Below, piece after piece: positions 1 through 60,894 of a DNA stretch of 64,000 nucleotides. Under the pieces are notes generated by a model. It was not told the origin of the DNA. It did no database searches and saw only the letters and a program-made list of their open reading frames with translations. Position 1 is the stretch's first letter; each line of letters starts with the position of its first letter. Source of the DNA: Thermoanaerobaculia bacterium (GTDB lineage Bacteria > Acidobacteriota > Thermoanaerobaculia > Multivoradales > JAGPDF01); assembly GCA_963712855.1 (NCBI GenBank), contig CAVQJN010000002.1:804405-868404 (forward strand), in the 5' to 3' direction. Position numbers and translations under genes: made by a program.

Positions 1-32
1 CAGCCCGGCCGAGCTTCCTCGGGGCGAGCCGC

Positions 33-906
33 ATGAGAAGCATCCGGGAAGCTCGAGATTCACCTCGTCCACAGCTGCAATCTGACCTGCGAGAGCTGCT
101 CCCATTATTCGAACCAGGGACACAAAGGGGTGCTCTCCCTGGAGGAAGCGGACGACTGGATGAGCGAGTGGAGCCGGCGGTTGAGCCCGGGCACCTTCTC
201 GCTGCTGGGAGGCGAGCCGACACTGCATCCCGATCTCGCCGAGTTCGTCGTGCTGGCCCGCAGGCACTGGCCGGCGGCCCACTTGCGGCTGGTGACCAAC
301 GGCTTCTTTCTCCACCGCCACCCGGACTTGCCCGCGGTGCTTCGACGCGATCGGGACGCCTGCCTCTACCTCTCGATGCATCACGACGCGCCGGAGTATC
401 TGCAGAAGCTGCGGCCCAACCTGGAGCTTCTGGAGCGCTGGCGCCGCGACTTCGGAGTGCGCGTCGAGACTTACCGCTCCTTCGAGAACTGGACCCGCCG
501 CTATCGGGGCGTCGGAAGCGCTATGAAGCCGTTCGCAGACGGGCAGCCGAGGCAGAGCTGGGAGCGCTGCCCGGCCAAGTACTGCGCCCAGCTCTTCGAA
601 GGAAAGATCTGGAAGTGCGCGCCCCTGGCCTATCTGCGGATGCAGGACGCCCGCCACGGCCTCTCGGGCGATTGGAAGCCCTATCTTCGCTACCAGCCGC
701 TGGCGCCCAGCTCCACCGACGAGCAGCTCGCGGAGTTCTTCGATCGCGAGGAGGAGCCCTCCTGCGCCATGTGCCCCGCGGATCCGGAGCGATTCAGAAT
801 GCCGGTGCCGTTGCGGGCTGCGAAGCCCCGTTCGAAGGAGGAGCGTGGAGAGCGGGCTCGGTGCCACGGACTCGCCGGGTATCTCCGATCCTCGGGCGAA
901 CGATAG
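33..906 (+). CDS. Radical SAM protein (5' end needs a 1-nt frame correction or an atypical start)
   Basis: The frame of ORF 130..906 stays open back to 37. Codons 76-99 encode CNLTCESC, the CxxxCxxC radical-SAM cluster motif, so the GTG at 130 is too far downstream. A LLGGEPTLHP motif and a Cys-rich C-terminus (CPAKYC..C..CAMCP) are present. There is an in-frame stop at 34-36, and the ATG at 33 is one frame off. Dropping one G of the run at 46-48 gives MRSIRKLEIHLVHSCNLTCESC. Confidence 0.7.
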
Positions 907-960
907 TCTCCCGAACGACGGCTGGCGCCGGGCGAAGCGGATGGGGGGAGCTGGGCCCGG

Positions 961-1065
961 ATGCTGTCGCTGTCGAGAAGGGAGTTCGCCGTGCGCCCGT
1001 TCCTGCTCGTTCTGTTCAGCTTGATGTTCGCGCAGCCCGGCTTCCAGCCAGGTCCGATTCTCTAG
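961..1065 (+). CDS. Small hydrophobic ORF (34 aa), hypothetical
   Basis: ATG at 961 and TAG at 1063-1065. It encodes MLSLSRREFAVRPFLLVLFSLMFAQPGFQPGPIL. Third codon positions are mostly G/C, and a G-rich stretch (GGGGGGAG) lies about 12 nt upstream. There is no recognisable family. Its 3' end contains a 14-mer shared with the repA-fragment junction at 17668. Confidence 0.2.
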   Translation: MLSLSRREFAVRPFLLVLFSLMFAQPGFQPGPIL

Positions 1066-1197
1066 GCCCCCCTCTCGGTGGGCGAGGACGAGCCCGCCGC
1101 ATGCCTCGTTGGCGAGGTCAAGGTCCGACGGCGGCTCCGACCATCGTAGCGCGCAGGTTTGGAGACGCAGATTCCGTCTTCCCTATGCGCAGAGAAG

Positions 1198-2530
1198 ATG
1201 GCCGCCGCCACTGCGGGCCCCCGCCTCTACCGCCCCCGCCGGCCCGAGCGCACGGTGCTCTATCGGGCGCTCGCGGCCGAATTCGAGCGCTTTCTCGGGG
1301 TCTACGAAGACCGCTTCGAGCGGACCCACGGGTACTTCAGACGAGCGGTCGAAAAAGCCGTCTACAGATACCTGGACTGCGGCATCTTCGCCCACGGAGT
1401 CGCGCGGGCGCACTGCTCCGAGTGCGGGCACGACGTGCTCGTCGCATTCTCGTGCAAGCTGCGCTGCCTTTGTCCCTCCTGCCACCAGAAGCGGGAGCTG
1501 CTCTGGACGGAATGGGCGGCTGAGCTTCTCGCCGAGGTGCCCCACCGGCAGGTCGTCTTCACCATCCCGAAGCGGCTGCGGATCTACTTCCGCTGCGATC
1601 GCAAGCTCCTCGGTGAGCTTCCCCGGCTGCGCGTGGAGAGCAATCCGGCTCTACTTCCGGGCTTGGTTCGACGGCCAGCCCGTCGTCCCCGGCGCCGTCG
1701 GCTTCCTCCAAACGGCCGGCGAGCTTCTCGGCTGGCACCCGCACCTCCACGTGCTCCTGAGCGATGGCGTCTGGCTGACGGACGGCACCTTCCGCCATCT
1801 GCTCGCCTTCGACTCTTCCGCGATCGAGAAGCTCTTCCGCGCCGAAGTGCTGCGCCTGCTCGTCGCGCGAGGCAAGCTCTCGGAAGAGGTCGTCGCCAAC
1901 CTGCTCAGTTGGCACCACCCCCAATAAGACTGGGGGCGCAGCAGCGGGTTCTCGGTGCACGCCGGAGCCCCCGTCGACTCCCGCCCCGAGGCCGTTCGTC
2001 TCGGCCGCTACGGCATCCGCTGCCCGCTCGTGCTCGAGCGATTGAGCTGGGACGAGACCTCCGGCGAAATCGTCTACCGCGCCCGAGCCGGGCACCGCGA
2101 TGGCCGGGGCGACTGCGTGGCTCGCTGGGACGTCCTCGAGTTCCTGGCCCGGGTGCTCGATCACGTTCCGGACCCGGGCCAGCAGCTGCTGCGCTATTGG
2201 GGTTGGTACAGCAACGCGGCTCGCGGCCGGCGTGAGCGCGTCGAAGGCAGGGCGAGCGCTGCGCCCGCTGGCGATTCGGCCACCGATTCCGACGAGGTCG
2301 AGAGCCGCCGGCGTCGGCTCACCTGGTCCCAGCTCATCCGCAAGGTCTACGAGCTCGACCCGCTGCTCTGCCCCTACTGCTGCGGATCGCAGCTCGAGAT
2401 CGTCGCCTTCGTGGTCGACTGGGTCTCTCTCCGGCGCCTGCTAACCCACCTGGGCTTCGCGCCCCAACAGCCGGAGCCCCTCGCCCACGCGCCGCCCCAC
2501 GACGCGGAACCCCGCCGCGCTCACGCCTGA
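1198..2530 (+). pseudogene. IS91-family transposase (Zn-binding N-terminus plus HUH/Y2 core), disrupted
   Basis: The N-terminal Zn-finger region (HCSECGHDVLVAFSCKLRCLCPSCHQK) lies in the frame of ORF 1159..2235, starting from the ATG at 1198. The core with the HUH-like motif (GELLGWHPHLHVLLSDG) continues in the frame of ORF 1109..1927 after a shift near 1620. An in-frame TAA lies at 1925-1927. The C-terminal part ([12 protein letters not shown]...CPYC) is in ORF 1955..2530. Confidence 0.8.
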
Positions 2531-2568
2531 TCCGCCCGGCACGCTCCGGGTTCGCTCGAGCTCTGGCC

Positions 2569-2732
2569 CCCCTACGCTTCTCCCAACGGAATCTACAACC
2601 CGGCGATCAGCAGCCGTTCCGAGCCTGTCCTCGGCTAGTCCTCCCGGCTCGGTTCAACTCCAAGACGCCCCCGCACCGCGAACTCTTGACGGGTGCTACG
2701 CTCGCGCCAGAAAGCAATTTCCTACACGGTGA
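2569..2732 (+). repeat. IS91-like ori-end module, copy 1 (164 bp, hairpin segment deleted)
   Basis: It aligns with 8473-8680, 14233-14440 and 19901-20105. The 44-nt segment GAGAC plus hairpin that the other copies carry is missing between CCTACGC and TTCTCCCAAC (about 2577/2578). Confidence 0.85.
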
Positions 2733-2767
2733 CACGGTCGGTACACGGTACACGGTACACGGTGAGT

Positions 2768-3010
2768 GACGCCTCGCCGGCCGCCGACCTGTGGGCCGCG
2801 GTCAAGGCCGACACCTTGTCGCTCACCTCGTGGCAGGTCGGCATGTACGGCTGGATGGCCATCGCCACCTTCGCCATCTTCGGCCACCCCATCGACAAGA
2901 CCGGCCCGGTGTTCTGGTTCATGATGCAGATCGCCATGCTGTTCGGTTTTGCCACCGCCTACCCGGTCAACGCCTGGCTGATCAGGGTCGGCATCAAGGG
3001 GTCGATGTAG
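2768..3010 (+). pseudogene. 5'-truncated membrane protein fragment (DUF4396-like C-terminus)
   Basis: The tail of ORF 2693..3010 (KADTLSLTSWQVGMYGWMAIATFAIFG...FWFMMQIAMLFGFATAYPVNAWLIRVGIKGSM) resembles, from memory, the C-terminal half of DUF4396 proteins. No N-terminal part is present, and the ORF runs straight out of the IS91 ori end and the heptamer repeats. Confidence 0.4.
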
Positions 3011-3060
3011 CACTCGGCGGGCTCGGCCCGGTTCGGCTGCAACGCGGTAACAGCCGTCAC

Positions 3061-3432
3061 TCAGAACACCATGGCGTGATCCACCAGCCACTTGCCATCG
3101 ACCGGCACAAACACCGCTTCGGCCACGAACTCGTCCGTCGAGCGGGAGCAGGTCTGTTTCCACACCACCGCCACGGATGTGCTGCGACGGAACAGGGCGC
3201 GAAACTCGCGCGCTTCGAAGGTGCCGATGCGCTGCTGGTAGTCGGCGCACATCGCCTGCAGCCGTTCTGGCGTGACCATGGCGCGCATGCGTGCGGTGAA
3301 GTCGCGCGTGTGTCGGGCGTGGTCGATCTCGGTCGAGCCCTGCATCAGGTTGTCCATGATGGGCTCGACGATGGCGAGGATTTCCCGGTCGGACAGGTCC
3401 GCAATGGATGGCATGTTGAAGTCCTCCTGCAA
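3061..3432 (-). CDS. Hypothetical protein
   Basis: A 123-aa ORF with plausible composition and no motif I can name. An alternative start is MPSIADL at 3414. It lies in a co-oriented gene string with the VOC genes. Confidence 0.5.
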   Translation of the reverse strand: MQEDFNMPSIADLSDREILAIVEPIMDNLMQGSTEIDHARHTRDFTARMRAMVTPERLQAMCADYQQRIGTFEAREFRALFRRSTSVAVVWKQTCSRSTDEFVAEAVFVPVDGKWLVDHAMVF

Positions 3433-3439
3433 TGGCTGC

Positions 3440-3832
3440 TCAGTAGGCCGGTTCGCGCACCTGGAACACGTTGCCTTCGGGGTCGTAGCCGTCGCATGCA
3501 GTGAAGCCGCGCGCCTGCCACTGCTTTTCCGCGCCGCCTATTTCGCCGCCCAGCAAGGCGGCACGTGCGCGCGCCGCTTCGATGCTCTCCACCGGCAGGC
3601 AAACCTTTATCGGCATTGCGTCGCGGACACGCGGCGGCGTGGTGATCTCGATGCTGTCGGCAATCTTCTTCGGGATGCCGTGCAGCACCAGCTGGAAGTG
3701 GCCACCGTCGAGCACGACGTGCGCGCGGTCACCGTGCACCTCGACCATGTCCACCACCTCCCGGTAGAAGCGGGCCATCTTTTTCACGTCCTTGGCGAAC
3801 ACCACGGCGCTGGGTTTGGGCTTGTCGCTCAC
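3440..3832 (-). CDS. VOC (glyoxalase/bleomycin-resistance/dioxygenase) family protein
   Basis: A 130-aa ORF of VOC-like size and pattern (VVFAKDVKKMARFYREVV..., C-terminal GYDPEGNVFQV). It overlaps the next VOC gene by 4 nt. Confidence 0.65.
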   Translation of the reverse strand: MSDKPKPSAVVFAKDVKKMARFYREVVDMVEVHGDRAHVVLDGGHFQLVLHGIPKKIADSIEITTPPRVRDAMPIKVCLPVESIEAARARAALLGGEIGGAEKQWQARGFTACDGYDPEGNVFQVREPAY

Positions 3833-4206
3833 TCGCTTTCTCCTTCAATGACCTGGCCAATGTCGATCTGGTTGCCATCCGGGTCGGCAACACGGAAATC
3901 GCGCAGGCCGTAGTGGCGGTTGCCGATGGGCACGACGATGTCCGCGCCGGCCTGGACCATGCGCTGGTGCCAGGCATCGATGCCGGATACGCGGATGCTG
4001 GCGCGCGAGGGCCCGGCCGGGCGGGCATCGGCGCGCTGTGCAAGCGTGATTTCCACCGCATCCCGGCATATCGATGCCAGGGTGGCCGGCTCGCCCCATG
4101 TCCAGGCGACGTCGAAACCCAGTGTGTTCTGGTAGAACTGCAAGGCGCGGGACAGGTCGTGCACCCCGAACACGGGCGAGATCGATTCAAGTGTGGTCTG
4201 TGTCAT
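3829..4206 (-). CDS. VOC family protein, bleomycin-binding-protein-like
   Basis: SPVFGVHDLSRALQFYQNTLGF...YGLRDFRVADPDGNQIDIGQ is the typical glyoxalase/bleomycin-resistance fold signature. Confidence 0.7.
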   Translation of the reverse strand: MTQTTLESISPVFGVHDLSRALQFYQNTLGFDVAWTWGEPATLASICRDAVEITLAQRADARPAGPSRASIRVSGIDAWHQRMVQAGADIVVPIGNRHYGLRDFRVADPDGNQIDIGQVIEGESE

Positions 4207-4362
4207 GCCGCTTTCTCCGTGGAAATGATCGTCGTTGCCGGCGTCAGCCTGTGCTCGGGCGACGGCACCCAGTGCTCCATTTCGCTGATGGCTGGCAGGG
4301 GCATCGTGCTGGCCTTTTTCATGGATGGGGTGCTCCTTGCCAGCAGTCTTGCTGCAGGCCGT

Positions 4363-4839
4363 TCAGCTCTGGCCGTCATCGGTTTCATCCTGGCGCCCGA
4401 TGTCGATCAGGAGTGCCAGCGTGCGCCGGGTCGTGCTGACCGCCTGCTTGCCTGCGCGGGTGATCAGCTCGGCATCAATCGCGTCGCGCGCGCGGGTCTG
4501 CGCCACGGCCGCGGCCCGGCCACGATCGGTCAGGGTCACGTTGAGCCTGCGTCGGTCATGCGGGTCCACGCTGCGCTCGAGGTAGCCGCGCGTGACCAGG
4601 GTGTCGACAAGCTGCCCGGCGGCCTGCTTGGAAATGCGCAACTGGCGGATGAGCTGCCCCAGCGGCACATCCGCGTCGTCCATGGCCAGGCCGCCGATGA
4701 GATACAGGCCGTTGCCGGGAATGTCGTCGTAGCCCTCGGCTTCAAGCGCGCGGCGCATCGCCGTGCCGTAGGTGCTGCGTGCGTGCCGCAGCAGAGCAGG
4801 GGTGGTGACGCGTTCGTATCGGGGCAGGTCGTCGGACAT
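4363..4839 (-). CDS. MarR family transcriptional regulator
   Basis: A winged-helix segment, QLIRQLRISKQAAGQLVDTLVTRGYLERSVDPHDRRRLNVTLTDRG, is the classic MarR pattern. Confidence 0.8.
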   Translation of the reverse strand: MSDDLPRYERVTTPALLRHARSTYGTAMRRALEAEGYDDIPGNGLYLIGGLAMDDADVPLGQLIRQLRISKQAAGQLVDTLVTRGYLERSVDPHDRRRLNVTLTDRGRAAAVAQTRARDAIDAELITRAGKQAVSTTRRTLALLIDIGRQDETDDGQS

Positions 4840-4967
4840 GGGGGAATAAAGTCAATTAGATTGATAGTCAATATACAGGACTAAATTGGCATGTCAAGCC
4901 CTGTGGCGCCACGGGCGCCACAATCAGGCCACCGCGATCAGTTCAGATCACTTGCCCCGCTCTCGGC

Positions 4968-5402
4968 TCAGGCATCGTCGCCCGTCAGGAACCGGACCTT
5001 GCCAATCCATCCCCGCTGGCGTCGCGCCAGGCGCTCCTCGGCGGTTTCCTGCGCAAAGCTTGCCGGCGCATGCTGCAACAGGGCCGGGTCCACACCATCG
5101 AAGGCATGGACGCTGACCACGGCGTACACACGGCCTTCGATCTCGGAGGTGACGACCGGCACCACACCGCAGCGGCGGCAGACGTGGAACTGGGCGGTCC
5201 GGGTGTCGAATGCATAGCGCGATACCTGCGCCGAGTCCCGGACCATGACCTCGAGCGTGCCCGAGGGGCAGGATGTCCAGACACCGCCGTGCTTCGTGCA
5301 GAACGAGCAGGTGCAGGCACGCGCCGGAATCGTGGTCGGCTCGGGCTCCCAGGCCAGGGTGAACGCAATAGTGCCGCAGTGACAGCTTCCCTTGATCAGC
5401 AT
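4968..5402 (-). CDS. GFA (glutathione-dependent formaldehyde-activating/CENP-V-like) family protein
   Basis: MLIKGSCHCGTIAF...CTCSFCTKHG...CRRCG matches the Cys-rich GFA pattern. The start is taken at the internal ATG at 5402 (plus strand reads cat at 5400-5402) rather than at the ORF-track start 5468. Confidence 0.7.
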   Translation of the reverse strand: MLIKGSCHCGTIAFTLAWEPEPTTIPARACTCSFCTKHGGVWTSCPSGTLEVMVRDSAQVSRYAFDTRTAQFHVCRRCGVVPVVTSEIEGRVYAVVSVHAFDGVDPALLQHAPASFAQETAEERLARRQRGWIGKVRFLTGDDA

Positions 5403-5480
5403 GAGCGGTTTCCTCGTTTTATCGGGCAGCGAGTCCCGCGCAACGCGTTGGGACTGCAGCCCCCGCAAGCGTGATGCTAG

Positions 5481-6282
5481 GGCCTGTTAACACTACCGAA
5501 GAGATTCTACGACGAGCGCAAAGCATAGGAAGGCCATGAACATGACGTCGAGCTTGTCGAATCGGCTGAAGATGCGACGAAAGCCCTTGAGTCTTCGAAA
5601 CAGGCGCTCGATTTCATTGCGGCGACGGTACCAGGTCTTGCTGTAGGACCAAGGATGGGGGCGTGTGATCTTGGGCGGCACAACAGGGATAAGGTCCAGA
5701 TCCAAGGCGAGTTGCCGGGTTTCGAGGCCCTCGTAGGCCCGATCCATGATGAGTCGACATCGCTTCGGTAGCTCCGGCAAAGTGCGGAGCAACTCGCGAC
5801 CCGCAGGAGCATCATGGGCTTGCCCCTCCGTCAGGGAGAACGCAATGGCACACCGAGCATCCGCGGCAACCATATGAATCTTGGTGGTCCATCCGCCGCG
5901 GGATTTTCCGATGGCTTGCCGGCCGTTTTTTTTAGAGCACCCGTGCCGTCGGGATGCACCTTGACGATCGTGCTATCCAGGCTGACCGCTTCGATCTTGA
6001 TCCGAACCAGCTGATGGCGCTGCATCTCTTCGAACAGGCGATCCAGCACTCCAGCTTTTGCCCAGCGGTTCATTCGAGTGTAGACCGTGTGCCAGTTTCC
6101 AAAGCGCTTCGGCAAGCCGCGCCACTTGCAACCGTGCTCCGCGACGTACAAGATCGCGTTGATCACTTGCAAGTTGCTGAGGCTGACGTTCCCGCGCTGC
6201 ACCGGAAGAATGGCCTCGATGCGTCTGAACTGTGCGGCCGTGATCTCCATGCCGCTACGATATCACTTAGTGTTAACATGCC
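5481..6282 (-). mobile_element. IS5-family (IS427-like) insertion sequence, apparently intact, 802 bp
   Basis: The terminal inverted repeats are GGCCTGTTAACACTA (5481-5495) and TAGTGTTAACATGCC (6268-6282), matching at 14 of 15 positions. It is flanked by a direct CTAG at 5477-5480 and 6283-6286, a target-site duplication typical of IS5-type elements. Confidence 0.85.
5493..6250 (-). CDS. IS5-family transposase, OrfA/OrfAB via programmed -1 frameshift
   Basis: OrfA is ORF 5831..6250 (MEITAAQFRRIEAILP...GCKWRGLP). OrfB is ORF 5493..5873, extended upstream (KKNGRQAIGKSRGGWTTKIHMVAADAR...DRAYEG...NEIERLFRRLKGFRRI). The two frames overlap at an A8 run on the minus strand (T8 at 5926-5933). Frame arithmetic fits a -1 shift. 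Confidence 0.8.
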
Positions 6283-6636
6283 CTAGCTGGCAGAGGTCGT
6301 TCCCTTGCGCGGGCGCCGGCGTGCCCTGGGCTTGGGCGCCGGCAAGGCTGCCGAGGTGGCCAGGACAAGCGCCTGCAGTGCATCGACGTCGTCCAGCAGT
6401 TCATCGGCAACCGGGTAATCCTTTGCGCCCGGATAGGGCGGACCCAGGGGCAGGTCCGGTGCCAGGGTCTCCGTGGCTTTGGTGGGTTTGACAAACAGGC
6501 TGTTGTCGCAGACCAGCGCGACCACCTTGCCGTCATGGTACAGCGCGTATTCGCCAAACATCTTGCGGCAACTGAGCGCGTCACCCAGCCCGGCCTGTTC
6601 AAGTACATAGTCGACAAAGTCGCTGTCTGTTGCCAT
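6283..6636 (-). CDS. TfoX N-terminal domain protein
   Basis: MATDSDFVDYVLEQ...CRKMFGEYALYHDGKVVALVCDNSLFVK matches the TfoX_N pattern. The start is taken at the ATG at 6636. The stop codon (plus strand reads cta at 6283-6285) lies inside the CTAG target duplication of the IS5 element. Confidence 0.6.
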   Translation of the reverse strand: MATDSDFVDYVLEQAGLGDALSCRKMFGEYALYHDGKVVALVCDNSLFVKPTKATETLAPDLPLGPPYPGAKDYPVADELLDDVDALQALVLATSAALPAPKPRARRRPRKGTTSAS

Positions 6637-6748
6637 GTCAGATTGCCTCTCCGGCTGTTTGAACCCCATGGTAGCCGGTTGCTTTCATCGCACCAGGCAC
6701 CAGACGCGCAGCAAGGCGGCCCTTGCAGGCGATCAGCCGGCCATGTAC

Positions 6749-7360
6749 TCAGGCGACGCTGCGCGCCGCCACGCTCAGGGCCACCGTGACATTGGCGCTG
6801 GCGTGCAGCAGCCACGGCCCGAGGATCGAATGCGAACGGGTCCTCAGCCAGCCTGCAAACAGCCCGCCGACCAGCACCAGCGGCAGCACCATCCAGATCG
6901 ACGGCATGACCAACAGCACCAGCACATGCGGCGCCAGAAACACCAGCGCCTGCAGCAGGTTGGCCCAGATCAGTGGCAGCCGCCGGCCCAGGCTGCCGGC
7001 AATGAGGCCGCGGAACAGAAACTCCTCGGCAAAACCGGTCTGCAGCACGCCGTACAGCAGCGCCATGACAACAGCGGGAATGCCAAGCCCAAGCCCGGCA
7101 AAGGACGCAAAGCCGGAGCCCCTGGCGGTGGAGCTTGCCAGTGACGGCGGAAACACCAGCAGCGCCATGACGAGGACGACGGCAGCGACAGCCGCATAGC
7201 CGAGATAGCGCGGGTCACCCATCTGCAATCCGGCTCGCCGCGTCACCTCGGCAAAACGGCGGCCGTGCCGCCAGCGGTGATCGCCGTAATAGACGCCCAG
7301 CGGAATCACCACCAGGACCACGACATTCACAAGAGCAGACATCAGGGCTTGGATCAGCAT
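6749..7360 (-). CDS. CPBP family intramembrane glutamic endopeptidase (CAAX protease/Abi-like)
   Basis: A multi-TM protein with the EEFLFRG motif and downstream His motifs (LAPHVL, LLHASAN). Confidence 0.75.
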   Translation of the reverse strand: MLIQALMSALVNVVVLVVIPLGVYYGDHRWRHGRRFAEVTRRAGLQMGDPRYLGYAAVAAVVLVMALLVFPPSLASSTARGSGFASFAGLGLGIPAVVMALLYGVLQTGFAEEFLFRGLIAGSLGRRLPLIWANLLQALVFLAPHVLVLLVMPSIWMVLPLVLVGGLFAGWLRTRSHSILGPWLLHASANVTVALSVAARSVA

Positions 7361-7426
7361 GACGGGATCTCCTTGGTACGTGTTGCAGCCTGGCCGAGCC
7401 GGGTATGCCCGGCGCAGCTCAGGGCC

Positions 7427-7798
7427 TCAGCGATGCTGGTCGATCAGCACCGGGTTGCCGTCCGGGTCGACCAGGGTGATGTGTTCCGGGCCCGTGCTGT
7501 CGGTATCGGCCTCGCGGGTCAGCTCTATGCCGCGCGCCTTGAGTTCACGCTGAATCTCGCGCACATCGGTAAACGGATCCTCCGGCTGCGCATTCTTGCC
7601 CCAGCCGGGATTGAAGGTGAGCATGTTGCGCTCGAACATGCCCTGGAACAGGCCGATGGTATGGCCGCGGTTGCGCAGCACCAGCCAGTTCTGCTCCTGG
7701 TCGCCGCCGGTGACCTCGAAACCGAGCTTCTCGTAGAAGGCGCGCGACGCGGCAATGTCCTTGACGGCCAGACTGATGGAAAAGGCACCAAGATTCAT
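7427..7798 (-). CDS. VOC (glyoxalase) family protein
   Basis: [29 protein letters not shown]...[13 protein letters not shown]. The start is at the ATG at 7798 (plus strand reads cat at 7796-7798). The upstream part of ORF 7427..8071 is antisense to the IS91 fragment. Confidence 0.7.
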
Positions 7799-7980
7799 GA
7801 GTTTCTCCTGTGTGGGGGTGTTGCAGGGCAGGTCAGGCGACCTGCCCGGTGGGTGGCAGCCAATCAGGCCGAGGTGAACTTCGTGCCGTTGTCGACGCGG
7901 ATCCCAGCCCGGGAAGGTGCCACCCGATTTCCTGAATTCTCCGAATTTTGCATCCGGCTTGGCTTTGCGCCAGCCAAGTC

Positions 7981-8680
7981 CTACCGCGCCCGAGCCGGGC
8001 ACCGCGATGGCCGGGGCGACTGCGTGGCTCGCTGGGACGTCCTCGAGTTCCTGGCCCGGGTGCTCGATCACGTTCCGGACCCGGGCCAGCAGCTGCTGCG
8101 CTATTGGGGTTGGTACAGCAACGCGGCTCGCGGCCGGCGTGAGCGCGTCGAAGGCAGGGCGAGCGCTGCGCCCGCTGGCGATTCGGCCACCGATCCCGAC
8201 GAGGTCGAGAGCCGCCGGCGTCGGCTCACCTGGTCCCAGCTCATCCGCAAGGTCTACGAGCTCGACCCGCTGCTCTGCCCCTACTGCGGATCGCAGCTCG
8301 AGATCGTCGCCTTCGTGGTCGACTGGGTCTCTCTCCGGCGCCTGCTAACCCACCTGGGCTTCGCGCCCCAACAGCCGGAGCCCCTCGCCCACGCGCCGCC
8401 CCACGACGCGGAACCCCGCCGCGCTCACGCCTGATCCGCCCGGCACGCTCCGGGTTCGCTCGAGCTCTGACCCTCCTACGCGAGACGAGCCGGGCAGCGG
8501 CCGTTCCACGTCCGCTGCCCGGCTCTTCTCCCAACTGAATCTACAACCCGGCGATCAGCAGCCGTTCCGAGCCTGTCCTCGGCTAGTCCTCCCGGCTCGG
8601 TTCAACTCCAAGGCGCCCCCGCACTGCGAACTCTTGACGGGTGCTACGCTCGCGCCAGAAAGCAATTTCCTACACGGTGA
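7981..8680 (+). mobile_element. IS91-family element, partial copy B (last ~455 bp of the transposase gene plus ori-end module)
   Basis: It is near-identical to 2074-2732 of copy A, with homology starting at CTACCGCGCCCGAGCC. The truncated transposase reading frame ends at 8434. The 5' two-thirds of the gene is absent. Confidence 0.85.
8473..8680 (+). repeat. IS91-like ori-end module, copy 2 (208 bp, with hairpin)
   Basis: It starts CTCCTACGCG and ends TTTCCTACACGGTGA. It carries a perfect hairpin, GAGCCGGGCAGCGG (8487-8500) / CCGCTGCCCGGCTC (8512-8525), with an 11-nt loop. Confidence 0.9.
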
Positions 8681-9120
8681 CCGCTCGCGGAAGGTCCGGC
8701 AGTCGGCCGAGCGCGAGAGGGCCGATGACCTGCGTGACTGCCTCGTGGCGCACAAGTCCATGGTCCCCGACCGTTCGACGGGCGAATCCGACGACACGTC
8801 GGGTGACCCGGCAAATCCGGACGCCGAATCGAGCCCGGAACGGCGCAGCCGGGAAGAGCGCTGGCGGCGCGCCCAGTCCGCACTCGATCCCGAGCTTCCC
8901 GCGGATCCCGAGTCGCGGCGCTGACGGGGATCTCGCGCACGGCCCACCTCACGGGCCCTCTCGAGTGTCCGAGGGCGTCGCAGACGGACGAGTGAGACCG
9001 CGGACCCGCTTCCGGGTCGGTCCGGAGCGACACGAAGCTCCGGCCCGGAGCTGCTGCGATGATCGGCCGCCGCTCGCGCCGGCCTGGTCTCCGTGCCGCG
9101 TTTCGGGATAATCGGGCGCC

Positions 9121-14232: not shown

Positions 14233-14440
14233 CTCCTACGCGAGACGAGCCGGGCAGCGGCCGTTCCACGTCCGCTGCCCGGCTCTTCTCCCAACTGAAT
14301 CTACAACCCGGCGATCAGCAGCCGTTCCGAGCCTGTCCTCGGCTAGTCCTCCCGGCTCGGTTCAACTCCAAGACGCCCCCGCACTGCGAACTCTTGACGG
14401 GTGCTACGCTCGCGCCAGAAAGCAATTTCCTACACGGTGA
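14233..14440 (+). repeat. IS91-like ori-end module, copy 3 (solo, 208 bp, no transposase sequence attached)
   Basis: It matches 8473-8680 almost base for base, including the hairpin (14247-14260 / 14272-14285). The sequence left of 14233 is unrelated to the IS. Confidence 0.9.
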
Positions 14441-14634
14441 CCGCTCGCCTTGCCGAAGGCGGCGTCGATCGCGGGCGTCGTCGGCAGCTTCGAGCCGTCG
14501 AGGCCGACGTGGTCGTAGCGCAGGCAGTCGACGAGCAGCACGAGCACGCCATGGGGTGGCTTGGGCCGAGCTGGGGAGCAGGCTCCCGCGAGGAGCGCGA
14601 GGCCGCAGACAAGAGCGAAGGCGGAATTTTTCAT
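14441..14634 (-). pseudogene. N-terminal fragment of a sulfatase/alkaline-phosphatase-superfamily lipoprotein, truncated at the repeat edge
   Basis: MKNSAFALVCGLALLAGAC (a lipobox-like signal) is followed by GVLVLLVDCLRYDHVGLDGSKLPTTPAIDAAFGKA, the typical sulfatase N-terminus. The reading frame then runs into the module (SGHRVGNCFLARA) and stops. The rest of the gene is missing. Confidence 0.6.
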
Positions 14635-17038: not shown

Positions 17039-17677
17039 TTACGCCGCAAGAGCCCGGACGTCGAGCTCGGCAGCCACTTCTCCCACTTCTGCGCCACCCT
17101 TGGCATTCCGCCGACCACCGGGCCGCGGGGCTCGCTGCCGATGCTCCGGGATCAGCTCCAGCGGCTCTTCGCGTCGACCTTCCAGTGCATCTTCCACGAC
17201 GAGAGCCAGTGCCGCCACGCCGGTGACGGCTTTCTGATTGCCGAGAAGCGGGAGCTCTGGTGGGACCCTCGGCCGGGGAGAGGCGAGGCGGGATGGGGGT
17301 CCCGCGTCGTCCTCTCCGACCGGTTCTACCGGGAGGCGACCGAGGCGCCGGTCCCGCTCGACCTCCGAGTGCTCCGCGCCCTGCGCTCGCCCTTCGAGAT
17401 CGACATCTACGTCTGGCTGACGTGGCGTTTCTTCCGGCTCCGCAAGCCGGTGACGATCCCGTGGACGTCGCTGGCGCTCCAGTTCGGATCGGGCTACGCG
17501 AACCCGCGGCACTTCAAGAAGCTGTTCCTCGGCTACCTGCGCGGGGTCATCGACTACTACCCCGAGGCCCGCGTCCGGCCCAGTGAGAACGGTCTCCATC
17601 TGGTGCCCTCCGCCACGCACGTGGCGCCTCGTCGTTTGGCGATGAAGCCGCGACGAGATGAGAGGCCCCAGCCAGGT
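17039..17677 (+). pseudogene. Plasmid RepA_C-type replication initiator gene fragment (5'-truncated), copy 1
   Basis: The frame of ORF 17141..18016, extended upstream, reads ...ELGSHFSHFCATLGIPPTTGPRGSLPMLRDQLQRLFASTFQCIF...PVPLDLRVLRALRSPFEIDIYVWLTWR...ANPRHFKK. From memory this is the pattern of plasmid-encoded RepA (PF04796-like) proteins. There is no N-terminal half. Similarity to copy 2 ends at 17677, and the left boundary is approximate. Confidence 0.55.
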
Positions 17678-18461: not shown

Positions 18462-18502
18462 GCCGTGACGGTCGCGGCGAGCATCCCCGCCCCTCCCCCG
18501 AC

Positions 18503-18893
18503 GCCGAGCTCCTGGGTTGGCACCCGCACCTCCACGTGCTCCTGAGCGATGGCGGCTGGCTGCCGGACGGCACCTTTCGCCACCTGCTCGCCCTCGACTC
18601 TGCCGCGATCGAGAACCTCTTCCGCGCCGAGGTGCTCCGCCTACTCGTCGAAAGAGGAAAGATCTCCGACGAGGTGGTCGACAACCTCCTCTCGTGGCGC
18701 CAGAGCGGGTTCTCGGTGCATGGCTCGGTCCGCGTCGAGGAGCGCTCCGCGGCGGTGCGCCTCGGCCGCTACGGCATTCGTTGTCCGCTCGTGCTCGAGC
18801 GACTGTCCCGGGACGGGAACTCCGGCGAAATCGTCTACCGCGCCCGCCCCGGACACCACGATCGCGCCGGCGACCCCGAGGCTCGCTGGGACA
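18503..18893 (+). pseudogene. IS91-family transposase internal fragment (copy C, diverged)
   Basis: LLGWHPHLHVLLSDGGWLPDGTFRHLL...RLGRYGIRCPLVLERL...YRARPGHHD aligns with 1718-2115 of copy A, with scattered substitutions. Homology ends at GCTCGCTGGGAC (18893). Confidence 0.8.
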
Positions 18894-19300: not shown

Positions 19301-19785
19301 CCATTCGCGGCGCCGTCCAGGCGCGCTCGGATCCGAATCCCTGCCGCTGCCTGGAGGTCCCGAAGGGAAGATTGGTGGACCAACTCACTCCGAGTTCGAA
19401 CACCCCTGGAGATTCGAACACCCTGGTTTCATGGCTTCGGGAAGTCGCGGCGCTGAGGCAGGCCGCATGACGGCGGCCCTGCCTCCGGTTCCCGTACGCC
19501 GTCCCCGGAGGCGCCCCAAAGGGCGCCTCGCCGGGGCCAGCGTCCCTCTCTGGCATCCGCTGCCCGGCAGCGGAGCGGAGGGGCCCAATGGCTGGAAGTA
19601 CCGCTTGGAAGTCCGCGACCCCGCAGCTCTCGTTGGCCCTCCCCTGGCGACCCGGCGTCACAGCTTCATTCGACAGATGTTGAGATCGGAGCGCGCAAGG
19701 CCAGACGCACCGGCAGCCTGATCCGGCAGGCGCTCTATCTCGACCAGGAGGACGCCTACGCCGCGGGCGAGGTCGGCTTCCGGGT

Positions 19786-20105
19786 GCTTCGCGCCCCAAC
19801 AGCCGGAGCCCCTCGCCCACGCGCCGCCCCACGACGCGGAACCCCGCCGCGCTCACGCCTGATCCGCCCGGCACGCTCCGGGTTCGCTCGAGCTCTGGCC
19901 CTCCTACGCGAGAAGAGCCGGGCAGCGGCCGTTCCACGTCCGCTGCCCGGCTCTTCTCCCAACTGAATCTACAACCCGGCGATCAGCAGCCGTTCCGAGC
20001 CTGTCCTCGGCTAGTCCTCCCGGCTCGGTCCAACTCCAAGACGCCCCCGCACCGCGAACTCTTGACGCGTGCTACGCTCGCGCCAGAAAGCAATTTCCTA
20101 CACGG
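19786..20105 (+). mobile_element. IS91-family element remnant D (last ~75 bp of the transposase gene plus ori-end module)
   Basis: CTTCGCGCCCCAACAGCCGGAGCCCCTCGCC... aligns with 2455 onward of copy A and continues through the module to CCTACACGG at 20097-20105. Confidence 0.85.
19901..20105 (+). repeat. IS91-like ori-end module, copy 4 (205 bp, with hairpin)
   Basis: The hairpin arms are at 19915-19928 and 19940-19953. The terminal CCTACACGG is followed by CTTG and then a second CCTACACGG (20110-20118). Confidence 0.9.
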
Positions 20106-20154
20106 CTTGCCTACACGGCGACGATCCGGGGTCCGATCCCGGGAGGAGACGTCG

Positions 20155-21837
20155 ATGCGAGCTCCCATCTTCCGCCGCAGCCTCGGGACCGCCACTCTGG
20201 TGGGTGTCTGTGCCCTGACCTTCGGTGGCAGCGCGCGCGCGGCGACGCGCACCGTGTGTCCCTCGGGGTGCAGCTACGCGAGCGTGCAGGCGGCGTTCGA
20301 CGCGGCGCAAGCGGGAGACGAAGTCATTCTCGCAGTCAACGGGTCCTTCATCGAGAACGGGATCGTCGCGCCGGCGATCCCGGTCGAGCTTCACGGTTTC
20401 GGGGCCTCGGTCACGAAACTGAAGGCGGCCGTTACCTACGACACCGGCGCCGGCCGAATCCTCACCGTGCCACCGGGAGGTGAGCTGACAATTCGCAACC
20501 TCGGCCTGCTCTTCGGGGATGCCGCGGGTGACGGCGGCGGCATCCTCAACAACGGCCACCTGATGCTGGATCAGGTTGACGTGCTCGGGAACAGAGCGGT
20601 CAACGGGGGAGGGATCTTCAACGCCGGGGCGCTCGAAATGGCCGGTAGCGAAGTCAATGGGTATCTCACCAGTGGCAGTGGCGGGGCGCTGTACAACGCT
20701 CCGGGCGCCAGCTTGTCGGCCTACGGATGCCGGATCCACGGAGCTGCGCTGAGCGGCGATGGCGGAGCGCTCTACAACGAAGGCACGGCTCATCTACAGC
20801 GGACGGACGTGGACTCCTCTGAGGCTCTCAACGGCGGCGGTATCGCCAACGTCGGCGGCTCGCTGACCCTCGAGGAGCTACGGCTGCTCTCGAACACCGC
20901 CCAGTCCAGTGGAGGAGGGCTCTTCCAGGACCTTCCGGCATCCCAGACCCAATTCACGCGCGGCGAGACCTCCGACAGCCACGCGGGGGCAGGAGGCGGC
21001 TGGGCGATCTTCGACGGATCCGTGACCGCGACGGTGGTCACGATCCACGACAACGACGCGAACGGCTATGGGGGCGGTATCGACATCCATGGCGGCTCCG
21101 TCCGGCTTTCCGCCGGGACGATCGCCGACAACCATGCCGGCCTGGGCGGTGGGATCTACTACTGGGGTGGGTCTGCGCCCCGTCTCGCCAACGTGACCAT
21201 GAGCGGCAACGGCGCAGACTTTCGCGGTGGCGGCATCTACGTCAAGGGAGGCAAGAACATCAAGCTGGCGTCCTGTACGGTGGCCGACAACTACGTCGAT
21301 CCGTACGACACCTATGGTGGCGACGGTGGCGGGCTCTATCTCGCCGACGACTGCGTCGGCGCCTGCGCGGTCACCCGCGCCTATGTCAAGAACACGATCG
21401 TGTCCGGCAACCACGATGGCAACTCGGGGAGCCTGGCGCGCGACTGCTGGGGCGAGATCTACTCCGATGGCTACAACCTGATCGGCGTCGCCGACAGCGG
21501 CACGCTGGCCACCTGCCATCTCGCCGGCAGCCTCACCCACGTCATGGTCGGAGTCGATCCGAAGCTGAGCTCCCTTCTCAATGACAACGGCGGCGTGCCG
21601 GTCGCGCTCGGCGGGCCGCCGCCCTTGACGCGCAAGCTGCTCGCCACCAGTCCGGCGATCGACGGTGGCGACCCGGCCGGATGCACCGACTACGATTCGG
21701 CGCCGCTCGACGCCGATGAACGGACCGCGCCGCGGGCCGGCGTCTGCGACCTGGGAGCTTTCGAGTACGGCAGCCATCCGGCCTGGAACGTGATCTTCGA
21801 GGACGGCTTCGAGAGCGGCAACCTCGACGCCTGGTGA
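20155..21837 (+). CDS. Secreted right-handed beta-helix repeat protein (polymorphic-membrane-protein/choice-of-anchor-Q-like), probably 3'-truncated
   Basis: The ATG at 20155 is preceded by GGGAGGAG, and a signal peptide (LVGVCALTFGGSARA) is present. There are many GGGI(F/L/A)N-type repeats and a CDLGAFEYG motif near the end. The protein ends ...FEDGFESGNLDAW about 15 nt before the second repA repeat begins. Confidence 0.7.
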   Translation: MRAPIFRRSLGTATLVGVCALTFGGSARAATRTVCPSGCSYASVQAAFDAAQAGDEVILAVNGSFIENGIVAPAIPVELHGFGASVTKLKAAVTYDTGAGRILTVPPGGELTIRNLGLLFGDAAGDGGGILNNGHLMLDQVDVLGNRAVNGGGIFNAGALEMAGSEVNGYLTSGSGGALYNAPGASLSAYGCRIHGAALSGDGGALYNEGTAHLQRTDVDSSEALNGGGIANVGGSLTLEELRLLSNTAQSSGGGLFQDLPASQTQFTRGETSDSHAGAGGGWAIFDGSVTATVVTIHDNDANGYGGGIDIHGGSVRLSAGTIADNHAGLGGGIYYWGGSAPRLANVTMSGNGADFRGGGIYVKGGKNIKLASCTVADNYVDPYDTYGGDGGGLYLADDCVGACAVTRAYVKNTIVSGNHDGNSGSLARDCWGEIYSDGYNLIGVADSGTLATCHLAGSLTHVMVGVDPKLSSLLNDNGGVPVALGGPPPLTRKLLATSPAIDGGDPAGCTDYDSAPLDADERTAPRAGVCDLGAFEYGSHPAWNVIFEDGFESGNLDAW

Positions 21838-21851
21838 GGCGGCAGGCCGCG

Positions 21852-22235
21852 TGGGGGTCGCACGTGGTGGTCTCCGACCGGTTCTACCGGGACGCGACCG
21901 AGGCGCCGGTCCCGCTCGACCTCCGGGTGCTCCGCGCCCTGCGCTCGCCCTTCGAGATCGACATCTACGTCTGGCTCACTTGGCGCTTCTTCCGGCTCCG
22001 CAAGCCGGTGACGATCCCGTGGGCGTCGCTGGCGCTCCAGTTCGGGTCGGGCTACGCGAACCCGAGGCACTTCAAGAAGCGGTTCCTCGGCTACCTGCGC
22101 GGTGTGATCGACGACTACCCCGGCGCCCGCGTCCGGCCCAGTGAGACCGGCCTTCAGCTCGTGCCTTCGGCCCCGCATGTGGCGCCTCGCCGTTTAGCGA
22201 TGAAGCTGCGACGAGGTGAGGGGCCCCAGCCAGGT
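21852..22235 (+). pseudogene. Plasmid RepA_C-type gene fragment, copy 2
   Basis: This 384 bp is colinear with 17294-17677 (WGSHVVVSDRFYRDATEAPVPLDLRVLRALRSPFEIDIYVWLTWR...). By eye there is roughly one substitution per 10 nt. The shared sequence ends at CCAGCCAGGT. Confidence 0.6.
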
Positions 22236-22435
22236 TGCATTCGCTTAAGGTCGTCTCAGGTTCGTCCATTTTGAGTCGTTTGAAGAAGACTGATCGATCA
22301 CCGGCTTGTCCGAACGGCTTCGAGACGGGCGGCCTGTTGCGCTGGAGCAGCGACTCGAACTGAGGAAATCGAGTCTGCGAGCCGGCGGGCTCGTCTCTCG
22401 GGCGTTTGCTGCGTGCTGACGAAGGCGCTGCGAAA

Positions 22436-22511
22436 TGGTGGAGCAGAAGGGATTCGAACCCTCGACCCCCACGTTGCGAACGTGGTGCTCTCCCAGCTGA
22501 GCTACTGCCCC
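22436..22511 (-). tRNA. tRNA-Ala(CGC): tRNA-Ala (anticodon CGC), CCA encoded
   Basis: The reverse complement folds by hand into a 76-nt cloverleaf: acceptor GGGGCAG/CTGCTCC with the G3:U70 alanine identity pair, D stem GCTC/GAGC, anticodon stem CCACG/CGTGG with loop TTCGCAA, and T arm GAGGG-TTCGAAT-CCCTT. Confidence 0.95.
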
Positions 22512-39443: not shown

Positions 39444-39505
39444 GACCCGTGGGAGGTGGTTCGCGTTGGGCCGTGACCGCTCGCGCGGCCGCGGCCGGGG
39501 AGGCG

Positions 39506-58404: not shown

Positions 58405-60894
58405 GGGTAGTAGCCGCGCGCGGTACGGACGTCGGCACCGCGCCGGTGGACGCGCACCGTGACCTCGCGGAAGCCGTCACTCGGCGGATTGGAGGACTGA
58501 TAGGCGATCAAGTACTCGGAGCGTAGCTCGCGCTCGATCGTGCGATAGATCGGTCCGAGGGCGACCGCACGATCGATCCGGTAGTAGCGGCCGCCGGTCT
58601 CGCGCGCCAGGCGCTGGAGCAGCATGCCGGCTTCCGGCGGGCGAGCCGGGACGTGCAGGCCGACGACGTAGATCGCCACCCCGGTGCGGCGGGCATAGTC
58701 GAGCACCTTCTCGTAGCTGTACCTGCTCTTCGAGTCGAGGCCGTCGGTCAGCACGACGAGGGCGCGCTTGCCGTGGATGCCGCTGAAGTAGTGGAGGGCA
58801 TAGGCGAGGGCGTCCCAGAGCGCCGTCTCGCCGTCGGCCTCGAGGTGGGCGAGGCCGCCGGCCAGTACCTCGGTGCTGTGGGTGAATCGCACCGCCACGT
58901 GAGGCTCGTCGGCGAAAGTGATGACCGTGCCGCGGTCCTTGCCGGTCAGTACCTCGGAGAAGAAACGGAGCGCCGCGCTCTCCGCCTCGCTGCAGCTCTT
59001 CGGCCATCGAGGCCGAGGTGTCGAGCAGCACGCCGGCGTGGATCGGCAGGTCGGCGACCTTTTCGAAGCGCCGGATCTGCTGCTTCTTGCCGTCCTCTCG
59101 AACTTCCACCTCGCTTTCCTTCAGATCGTCGATCGGTCGCCCCCGGCGATCGAGCACGCTGGCGTAGAGCTCGACGAAGTCCACCTGCACGGCGGTCGAG
59201 AGGTCTCCGGCGCCGATCAGCTTCACGTCCTCGGCGGCGTCTCCGTCCACCAGGTAGGCGACGGCGCGGATCCAGGCCAGCTTGGTGCCGGCGGGCACCG
59301 GTAAGGACTGCGCGAAGGGGGGTTGGTAGAGGGTGGCGTAGAGCTTGTCGTCGACATAGAACTCGACGCGGTCGAGCGTCTCGTCCACGGGCACGTCGAC
59401 CTGGGCGCGTGCCACGACCCGTTCGGCGCCTGGCGGAATGTTCTGAGGATCGGTCAGGCGGAGGGCGAAGCGGTGCGGACCGCCATTGACCAGCGTCTCG
59501 TCGCGCGCCAGCTCGGTGCCGAACCCGTCGTAGGCGACGGCACCCACGCGATGCAGACGCAGGTTCGGCCCGAGGTCGAGCTCGACGTCGAACGGCGGGC
59601 GCAATTTGCGCATGATCGGCTTGCCGTCGAGCGTGAAGCCGACCGCGGCGATGTCGTCGCCTTGAGTGACGGCCTCGACCCGCGCACGGCCGGTCAGCAG
59701 GCGGTCGCCACCCGGGATGACCAGCCGCAACGAGGGCTCGGGTGCCGTGTCGGGGGCGCCGGCGTCGATCGCCGGGGTTGCCGGGGCCTCCGGCTTCGCC
59801 CGCGCCGTCGCCAGGAGCGTGCCGTCGGCTCCGACCACCGGCACCTCGAGGTCGCGTTCGTCGCGAAAGTAGCGGTCGTCGTCGAGCTCGTGCAGCTTGA
59901 CGATCAGGTGGTAATCACCGGGGCGCAGCGGTCGCTCGAAGACGAAGGGAGTCGTCGCACCGGGGGCCGCCTCGAAGCGGTAGCGGAAGTGATCGAACAG
60001 CTCGTCGCCGCGCAGCACCTCGCCGTCGACCGTATAGGCGTTCTTCGCGCTCGGGGGCTCTCCGAGGCGGATCGCGCCCTCGACCCGCGTCCGCAGACCG
60101 TGGCGGCCCGGAAAAGCCAGATCGAGTGCGGCCGGGAGCGTCTTCGCGCCCGCGGGGAGGTCGGTGGAGTAGGTCGAGAAGCTGTGCGCCCACTCGTCGT
60201 TCGGGTGCGGCATGAGCTCGCCCCGGGTCATCACCTCGTTCCAGTCGACCGCCACATCGAGCAGCGAGGCGATCTCGCCGCCGCGCGTGCAGTGGTCGGC
60301 GACCGACTGCAGGAGCTGCATCGGCGAGCTGCGCGTGGCGCCGGTTCCCATCGCCAGGGAGAACACGCCTTCATGCGGATCCCAGGCGCGGTACTCGCTT
60401 CGCTCGCTGAAGCTCTTCGCCACGAAGACCACGACGAAAGGGTTGCGCACCCGCCCGGCCAGGTCGTAGCGCCAGATCTCGGCCGGCCGGAGGAAGTCGG
60501 GACAGGCGACGCGGAGCGTCGAGGCGGGCTCGCCGGCGGCGGTATAGGCGAGGGCCCGCGCGTCCTCGAGGCTTCCCCAGCGCTCGATCGCCGCCGGAGC
60601 GCGTTTGCGCCAGGGGTCGGCAAACTCGTTGGCCGCGGTCTCGGGGAAGGGATCGCGCTCGCGCCAGAAACGGCTCTCGAATGCCCGTCGCTGATAGGCG
60701 TGACGGAGCGAGAGGTAGATCTCTCTCTCGACCGGCGTGATCAACGGCTGCGCGACCGCGAGGAACTCACGCGCCGCGGCGTCGGTGGCCGGGACCGCCG
60801 TCGGAGCCGGCGTTGGGCTCGGCGCTGGACCAGCCGCCACCGTGACCGCCGCGAGGAGCAGCCATCCGCCCATCTTCCACGTTCGGGCCGGCAT
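58401..60894 (-). CDS. VWA-domain secreted protein of the acidobacterial VWFA-related type, interrupted by a single frameshift
   Basis: The N-terminal ~630 aa are in ORF 58477..60894, up to VLLDTSASMAEELQ. The remainder (EAESAALRFFSEVLTGKDRG...THSTEVLAGGL...GETALWDAL...VVLTDGLDS...GYYP) runs in the frame of ORF 58401..58898 extended upstream. One extra nucleotide near 58989 separates the two frames. It is a paralog of 60942..63527. Confidence 0.75.

Follow-up and report, generated by a model that had tools for sequence, protein, structure and literature searches.

The window, by which we mean the whole 64,000-nt stretch of Thermoanaerobaculia contig CAVQJN010000002.1 analysed here, contains four same-strand copies of a repeat of about 205 nt, which we call copies A to D. 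An earlier note on this DNA had reported these copies, and a repeat scan, self-BLAST and a four-way MAFFT alignment find all four on the + strand where it had placed them, with pairwise identities of 98-99.5% (self-BLAST, MAFFT). The copies, the coding remains attached to them and one more divergent relative are as follows.

1144-2729, + strand: copy A, defective, with both element ends (left TCGTAGCGCG..., right ...TTTCCTACACGG)
1198-2530, + strand: transposase pseudogene of copy A, frameshifted near 1620-1650 and interrupted by a stop codon (1925-1927) within a 24-nt in-frame insertion
2569-2729, + strand: the repeat module of copy A, from which a 44-nt hairpin segment is deleted (alignment) and which has no stable fold (z = +0.5)
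2723-2763, + strand: terminal heptamer TACACGG, reiterated about six times across the right junction of copy A (TRF, sequence)
7981-8677, + strand: copy B, left-truncated, about 700 bp, made up of the last 454 nt of the transposase gene, the 243-nt 3' region and the ori terminus
14233-14437, + strand: copy C (solo), a 205-nt right-end remnant without transposase sequence
18502-18892, + strand: fragment of a second IS91-family transposase gene, more divergent (79-86% identical to copy A)
19786-20105, + strand (start at 19785 or 19786): copy D, left-truncated, 320 nt, comprising the final 77 nt of the transposase gene followed by the 3' region and the ori terminus

The lesions in the pseudogene were located by translations and by the offsets of repeat families D4 and D5. 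The second transposase fragment has lost both of its ends and is separate from copy D.

How far each copy extends tells us what the repeat is. Homology continues leftwards into the transposase gene from 1144 in A, from 7981 in B and from 19785/6 in D, so that CTCCTACGCG, previously taken as the start of a module in general, is a boundary only in the solo copy C. The module had also been described as following the 3' end of a transposase gene in three copies, and this is the case in A, B and D, although D retains very little coding sequence. The stop codon of B occupies 8432-8434, with its module part at 8473-8677; the module part of D lies at 19901-20105. At the other end, which had been drawn to include a final (TGA), the four copies do share a right end, ...TTTCCTACACGG, but the TGA(C) is flank: TGAC stands to the right of A, B and C alike, and D has CTTG there, followed by a second CCTACACGG. 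Copies B and C differ by one mismatch over 216 nt, a comparison that includes flank shared by the two. All four copies in the window are relics, A with both ends, a broken gene and no hairpin, and B, D and C progressively shortened from the left; the 'module' is simply the part common to the shortest relic. The consensus TCCTAYRCG occurs eight times in the window against 0.93 expected, and since seven of the eight lie inside the four copies the excess is not independent evidence. An additional TCGTAGCGCG at 39732 and a TCCTACACGG at 34368 fall within ordinary coding sequence with no further similarity, and we treat them as chance.

The repeats belong to an undescribed IS91-family insertion sequence of Thermoanaerobaculia (Acidobacteriota), about 1.6 kb long, of which they form the right (oriIS) ends. 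That the transposase is of IS91 type, as proposed before, is borne out by a profile search with the frame-corrected protein of copy A, which matches Pfam PF14319 Zn_Tnp_IS91 (E = 5e-19) and PF04986 Y2_Tnp (E = 1e-20) and scores 172.6 bits against the NCBIfam IS91-family model NF033538 (cut-off 125). Against the ISCR clade model NF052416 it reaches 139 bits where the cut-off is 925, which places the transposase outside the ISCR clade. A search of public contigs with the terminal 20 nt of the module returns one Acidobacteria MAG contig and 13 metagenome contigs (sludge, digesters), several of which hold a full copy, 96.7% identical, with an intact 434-aa gene; this is the identity between copy A and positions 1600-3204 of the intact metagenome copy L009. 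The intact 434-aa protein from metagenome contigs (P0001), for which the same Pfam domains are precomputed, is recorded on at least 17 contigs named Thermoanaerobaculia, and the best matches of the neighbouring chromosomal genes of the window are also in Thermoanaerobaculia.

Identity to the plasmid-borne transposases of IS91, ISCR1, ISCR2 and others is 26-39%. Alignment with IS91 and ISCR1 shows the HUH motif, HPHLH, and the invariant tyrosine. The classical two-tyrosine YxxxY motif is absent: only the second tyrosine is kept, in the context RLGRY, where IS91 has YFGSY and ISCR1 has RLCRY. The element is built around a gene for a 434-aa HUH transposase in which an N-terminal zinc-binding domain is combined with one catalytic tyrosine. 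Because this single-tyrosine state is ISCR-like, catalysis is probably similar to that of ISCR.

The earlier assignment of the module to the ori side of the element, 3' of the transposase gene, also stands, and the terminus itself can be read from the sequences that follow it.

8658-8677, + strand: oriIS terminal motif AGAAAGCAATTTCCTACACGG, the most conserved stretch of the non-coding region, identical in 14 distinct flank contexts

When the window and the public contigs are taken together, 14 different right flanks follow ...CCTACACGG (in its longer form ...GCAATTTCCTACACGG), and this change of neighbour at a constant point marks a true element terminus, 243 nt 3' of the stop codon. The right end ...TTTCCTACACGG was placed by this comparison of flanks and not from an empty site, and its exact last base is not fixed. 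Three relatives (L029, L030 and L031, with transposases 81%, 80% and 63% identical) keep the terminus as AAAGC(A/G)AT(T/C)T(C/A)CTACACG, with the rest of the 3' region poorly conserved. The 243-nt 3' region thus ends in a conserved terminus, ...AAAGCAATTTCCTACACGG.

A likeness of this terminus to the ori ends of IS91 and ISCR had been suggested before, and it is real, since published or observed ends of ISCR1, ISCR27 and IS91 carry the common core TTCCTA(Y). The terminus reads ATTTCCTACACGG here, ACTTCCTATACCC in ISCR1, ACTTCCTATACC in ISCR27 and AATTCCTATCGA in IS91; the ISCR1 and ISCR27 ends contain TTCCTA(Y)AC and the IS91 right end contains TTCCTAT. The published ori end of ISCR1 is GTGGTTTATACTTCCTATACCC (PMC13023784), seen also in a plasmid copy, that of ISCR27 is GCGGTTGAACTTCCTATACC, 236 bp after the stop codon (bioRxiv 10.1101/2021.01.14.426698), and one IS91 copy ends ...AAATTCCTATCGA. 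The tetranucleotides that follow ACACGG are CGAC and CGAT (twice each), CGAG, CGTT, CGGG, CTAC, CAGG and CAAA, together with TGAC (three times) and CTTG (once). The ori-abutting tetranucleotide is therefore biased towards YGA and is not of the canonical CTTG/GTTC type with T at position 2.

At the opposite side, the match between copy A and the metagenome copies starts at TCGTAGCGCGCAGG (1144), which defines the left end of the element.

1144-1197, + strand: terIS-side region, an imperfect nested palindrome GCGCAGG..GGAGACG-N7-CGTCTTCC..CCTATGCGC

This region is conserved in relatives as well, with a common block CCGTCTTC.CT.TGCGCAGAG.AGATG, and it resembles the left end of IS91, TCGAGTAGG. 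Its palindrome folds weakly as single-stranded DNA (z = -1.3). A third motif, related to those at the module boundaries (1178-1190), which the earlier note had placed 8 nt upstream of the transposase ATG, is present but lies at a distance of 7 nt; it is the 3' arm of the left-end palindrome, immediately before the ribosome-binding site and the ATG. The element has two unlike ends and lacks long terminal inverted repeats, with the ori end 3' of the gene and a conserved motif at its terminus, as is characteristic of the IS91 family. No direct repeats flank copy A, and its two flanks are unrelated DNA.

The non-coding region between the stop codon and the terminus holds one further feature.

8482-8530, + strand: conserved stem-loop, some 50 nt beyond the stop codon; likewise at 14242-14290 and 19910-19958

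Previously described as a perfect 14-bp hairpin, it is real in B, C and D but longer than stated, with an arms region of 49 nt. Folded as single-stranded DNA the module reaches -46 kcal/mol and is more stable than shuffled sequences on both strands (z = -3.7 and -3.9), with the stem-loop 145-195 nt from the terminus. The relatives with 80-81% identical transposases have a hairpin of like shape in the same place built from different stem sequences: in an ungapped alignment of three lineages, 9 of 22 pairs show compensatory changes, and 94% of the cells are paired, compared with 31-55% when the partner strand is slid. This covariation and pairing show that the structure is selected. The hairpin may act as a transcription stop or as a site at which the transposase binds single-stranded DNA. 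It has no T-run, and a scan of the module for promoter and terminator consensus sequences gave no match. Copy A has lost it and another lineage has lost part of it, and the terminus can be defined without it.

A strong hairpin, together with one copy that has no transposase sequence attached, might suggest that the module is an entity of its own, such as a MITE, an integron attC-like site, a REP element or a structured RNA gene. We give this next to no chance of being right. In A, B, D and every full-length metagenome copy the module runs on without a break from the 3' end of the transposase gene, always at one junction, and this constant linkage effectively refutes independence; diverged relatives keep both the layout and the terminus, the module has no match among Rfam families and none to the promoter and terminator consensus, and it shows neither terminal inverted repeats nor evident target duplications.

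Reading through the ter end and capturing adjacent DNA is known behaviour of IS91, IS801 and ISCR. Among the metagenome contigs, elements that are otherwise identical have 0, 107 or 260 nt of an IS3-family orfA on their left, and these three variants join three different outside sequences. Upstream DNA captured in this way is the product of ter-end read-through (one-ended transposition), and it is seen here in the metagenome lineage; that the element moved we infer. Across the 1.7-kb repeat the contigs disagree on which left flank belongs with which right flank, one left flank being assembled to three different right flanks and the reverse occurring too, so we trust only the junction sequences and have abandoned whole-copy structures. 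Viral contigs searched with two right-flank patterns yielded no empty site for the metagenome insertions, and the ori 20-mer is absent from the viral contigs. By analogy with IS91, IS801 and ISCR, the transposase would nick at the right terminus, the displaced strand would run leftwards through the gene and be released at the left end, and read-through past the left end would occasionally capture upstream DNA. IS801 likewise took along 290-1431 nt of the DNA upstream of it (Bardaji et al. 2011, PMC3189936).

It is useful to set the element beside the three best-known systems of this kind. Like IS801 (Pseudomonas syringae, IS91 family), a rolling-circle insertion sequence that measures about 1.5 kb and has its ori end 3' of a single transposase gene, it is found in a genome with left-truncated copies that keep the right end, as occurs in many copies for IS801, and it has upstream DNA (here the 107 and 260 nt of IS3) captured by read-through. 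It differs from IS801 in that its transposase has a single tyrosine and is only about 26-30% identical to classical family members, in that the bases at its ori end are not of GTTC/GAAC type, and in that its truncated forms are known from their sequences. With ISCR1 and ISCR27 it shares the context of the single catalytic tyrosine (RLGRY here, RLCRY in ISCR1) and the distance from stop codon to ori terminus (243 nt here, 236 nt in ISCR27, about 231 nt in ISCR1), and with ISCR elements generally it shares the occurrence of same-orientation arrays beside captured DNA. Unlike ISCR elements, which usually have no terIS, it has a recognisable left (ter) end; its transposase is 27-29% identical to that of ISCR1, its host is an environmental acidobacterium, and no resistance genes accompany it. 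As in IS91, there are zinc-binding and HUH domains, subterminal palindromes, a right end with TTCCTAT-like sequence (TTCCTAT in IS91) and a left end in which TCG..TAG is followed by a GC-rich palindrome (TCGAGTAGGCAGCC... in IS91, TCGTAGCGCGCAGG... here). Unlike IS91, it has no orf121, it has one tyrosine instead of YxxxY, and its ori flank is GG/YGA-rich where that of IS91 is CTTG/GTTC, CTTG being found at D only.

Now we consider the solo copy C, which raises the question of how a right end of 205 nt came to stand by itself. Its surroundings are distinctive.

14461-14634, - strand: sulfatase N-terminal stub of about 45-58 codons, with its break no more than about 20 nt from the right end of C
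8678-8688, + strand: shared right flank TGACCGCTCGC, 11 nt beyond the terminus of B and identical to 14438-14448 beside C

To the right of C lie a divergent promoter region and the start of the sulfatase gene, and to its left the 3' end of an unrelated FG-GAP gene. At an orthologous locus (L025) the sulfatase is intact, with 433 aa, and its gene is divergently oriented to the same membrane-protein gene; the stub is 77% identical to this ortholog over its first ~45 codons. An exact-protein look-up of the neighbouring membrane protein gave no match, and its best ortholog is 66% identical. When the rest of the sulfatase is sought by tblastn anywhere in the window, matches are confined to residues 3-43, so that some 390 codons (at least 1.1 kb) are missing. 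C is therefore not a simple insertion, and since the break in the sulfatase falls within about 20 nt of the right end of C, the element is tied to the loss of at least 1.1 kb on its left.

Copy C is most probably a deletion remnant of a longer copy, an ordinary IS91-family relic. A longer copy would first have inserted into the sulfatase gene at C, and a later deletion would have removed the left 1.4 kb of the element together with the rest of the sulfatase gene; the order of these events is reconstructed from an ortholog that is 65-77% identical. The 11-nt flank common to B and C is a further observation, one that simple insertion plus deletion does not explain either.

The alternative put forward earlier is that CTCCTACGCG, 205 nt from the ori end, works as an internal terminator, such that a fragment of 205-208 nt is released and reinserted as a non-autonomous mini-element. 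The general idea that premature termination yields right-end mini-fragments is sound, being published behaviour within the family: in an IS801 trap, 26% of events were right-end miniature fragments of 229, 360 or 679 nt, and these began at tetranucleotides resembling the left end (PMC3189936). Several observations count against its application to copy C, with a dedicated internal ter-like site, and we regard this as unlikely. Besides the ~390 sulfatase codons that are missing exactly at C, there is the matter of recurrence: no second copy starting at CTCCTACGCG is found among at least 20 junctions examined in a search that covered the window, one genome hit, 13 metagenome hits, 10 transposase loci and two viral contigs. 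Other truncated copies start at five to six other positions, including CTACCGCG (B), GCTTCGCG (D) and TCGCCCACGCG (L002/L014), and left boundaries differ among B, C, D, L002 and L005. Furthermore, C holds 11 nt of the right flank of B, which is not expected of a fragment initiated at an ori nick.

Short right-end remnants elsewhere are demonstrably products of deletion. A related phage-like locus carries remnants of 152, 144 and 124 nt whose alleles (L034, L033 and L005) form a nested series, with a common left flank, different points at which the element is joined and different amounts of flank kept. Their junctions read (the slash marks the join) ...GCGTCA/TCTACAACCCGG in L034, ...GCCTCA/ACCCGGCG in L033 and ...GGGTCAATC/AGCAGCC in L005, and each shorter allele can be derived from a longer one by deletion between repeats of 2-3 nt (CA, ATC). 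These nested microhomology deletions indicate that right-end remnants of this element shrink by ordinary deletion, and for IS801 too most genomic fragments were judged to be products of reorganisation and not transposed mini-fragments (PMC3189936).

What support is left for an internal terminator comes from the sequence at the truncation points. In B, C, D and L002 a CGCG follows 4-7 nt after the left end, as it does after the true left end TCGTAGCGCG, and both the start of C, (C)TCCTACGCG, and the junction of B, TCCTACCGCG, resemble that left end. Positions so near a CGCG make up 4.8% of the element, which gives a joint chance of about 5e-6, uncorrected for post hoc choice. We grade this signature as suggestive because it was noticed post hoc and on four junctions. 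It could mean that the transposase cuts ter-like sites, whether by abortive transposition or in a one-step deletion. Left ends adjacent to CGCG are not predicted by random deletions. No consistent tetranucleotide of the kind described for IS801 is common to the truncation and read-through ends, which show TCGT, GCCG, CCCG, CTAC, GCTT, TCGC, CTCC and ATCA.

The arrangement of the four ori ends invites a larger-scale interpretation. They have the same orientation, with spacings of 5948, 5760 and 5668 bp, and the intervening blocks contrast in composition (63.5% against 73% GC) and in content (accessory genes and an IS5 transposase against kinase and FG-GAP genes). It is conceivable that ter-less ori remnants were mobilised in trans and that each captured a block of about 5.7 kb, or that a one-step cut-and-join between a ter-like site and left flank produced truncation and deletion together; we think this very improbable. 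TGAC after A, B and C, the read-through captures of 107 and 260 nt in the metagenome lineage and the CGCG signature at truncation points all count for such accretion, the reiterated terminal heptamers found beside both A and D are compatible with it, and tandem ISCR1 arrays are known (PMC13023784). Against it, the block to the right of C is chromosomal and syntenic with relatives, and the missing part of the sulfatase is at no block's left edge. The left ends of the units are defined by position alone, no block is shown to exist as a second copy elsewhere, and similar spacings among three intervals may be coincidence.

A fuller version of this idea, which we consider quite improbable, would read the four ori ends as scars of serial rolling-circle capture of about 5.5 kb of upstream DNA with an intact transposase acting in trans. 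The units would have inserted at ori junctions already in place, the strand being released at ter-like sites that contain CGCG, to build an accretion array in the style of ISCR, and repeated nicking of the origin would have left the heptamers beside A and D as its traces.

The consequences are mainly for annotation. The first 22 kb of the window (1-22 kb) are pieced together from blocks of chromosomal and of foreign origin, with relics of a single IS91-family element at their boundaries, and annotations should mask these repeats or label them as IS91-family relics. The element is a Thermoanaerobaculia addition to the family whose ends are defined, whose transposase has a single tyrosine and whose 3' stem-loop covaries; this is useful for catalogues of insertion sequences and for comparisons of ori-end recognition between family members. 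The element reveals no new mobility mechanism, since right-end miniature fragments and capture by read-through have been described before for IS801, IS91 and ISCR. The single-tyrosine transposase, the non-canonical flank preference, the covarying hairpin and the 11-nt flank common to B and C are modest points of note.

Two minor observations concern the right flanks. Those of B and C were considered as degenerate pieces of the module and rejected as such, the similarity being not significant (p = 0.2-0.7). The right flank of D bears a weak resemblance to the start of the module (p about 0.05).

A tRNA gene and two remnants of a plasmid replication gene were noted in and just beyond the right-hand part of the repeat-rich region, where the defective IS91-family copies A to D lie:

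17141-17620, + strand, RepA_C plasmid replication gene, fragment 1
21834-22271, + strand, RepA_C plasmid replication gene, fragment 2, directly adjoining the 3' end of the tRNA-Ala(CGC) gene
22436-22511, - strand, tRNA-Ala(CGC) gene, immediately right of the repeat-rich region

The two RepA_C fragments are 90% identical to each other across ~400 nt. With a tRNA gene and two such fragments, one of them beside the tRNA 3' end, the arrangement hints at the decayed remains of an integrated plasmid or island, intermixed with chromosomal genes.

A second IS91-family transposase gene, more divergent, is also present as a fragment:

18502-18892, 79-86% identity to copy A

Neither side of this fragment is complete, and ~890 nt of unassigned DNA lie between it and copy D.

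Copies A and B enclose a block whose GC content is ~63.5%, compared with 70-74% in its surroundings, and whose genes are as follows:

2734-7980, a 5'-truncated DUF4396 gene, three glyoxalase-family genes, and MarR, GFA, TfoX_N and CAAX protease genes
5493-6250, - strand, a frameshifted IS5-family transposase gene inside the block

The block as a whole looks horizontally acquired.

At the right junctions of copies A and D the terminal sequence itself is reiterated. In copy A, ~6 reiterations of the terminal heptamer TACACGG span the junction (2723-2763), and on the right side of copy D (20097-20118) the last 9 nt, CCTACACGG, are repeated beyond a CTTG spacer. These repeats may be footprints of repeated origin nicking or of slippage. 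Beyond the terminus of B (8678-8688) and of C (14438-14448) the same 11 nt, TGACCGCTCGC, are found, after which the two right flanks diverge completely; this 11-mer occurs a third time at 39474, within unrelated sequence.

Among the metagenome contigs, the ends of Ga0302249_1009844 (1-3456; L009) overlap exactly over 127 nt, and the contig therefore represents a circular or tandem 3329-bp unit, in which the intact element is accompanied by 260 nt of IS3 orfA and by phage-like DNA of ~1.2 kb. Candidate explanations for this unit are a small replicon, a transposition circle and an assembly artefact. When L001 and L006 are compared with L008, all public contigs carrying element sequence, the module of one lineage is seen to have lost an internal stretch, with the deletion falling between two near-repeats, GCAGCGGCCGTTCC and GCAGCAGCCGTTCC. 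The same comparison reveals, in two contigs, a 1.7-kb segment bordered on one side by a partial copy ending within the left arm of the hairpin and on the other by a further copy, whose start lies 40 nt upstream of the module.

Near the end of the window, the neighbouring stretches 58489-59655 and 61033-62201, with genes on the - strand, share 66% identity across ~1.2 kb and are probably tandem paralogues.
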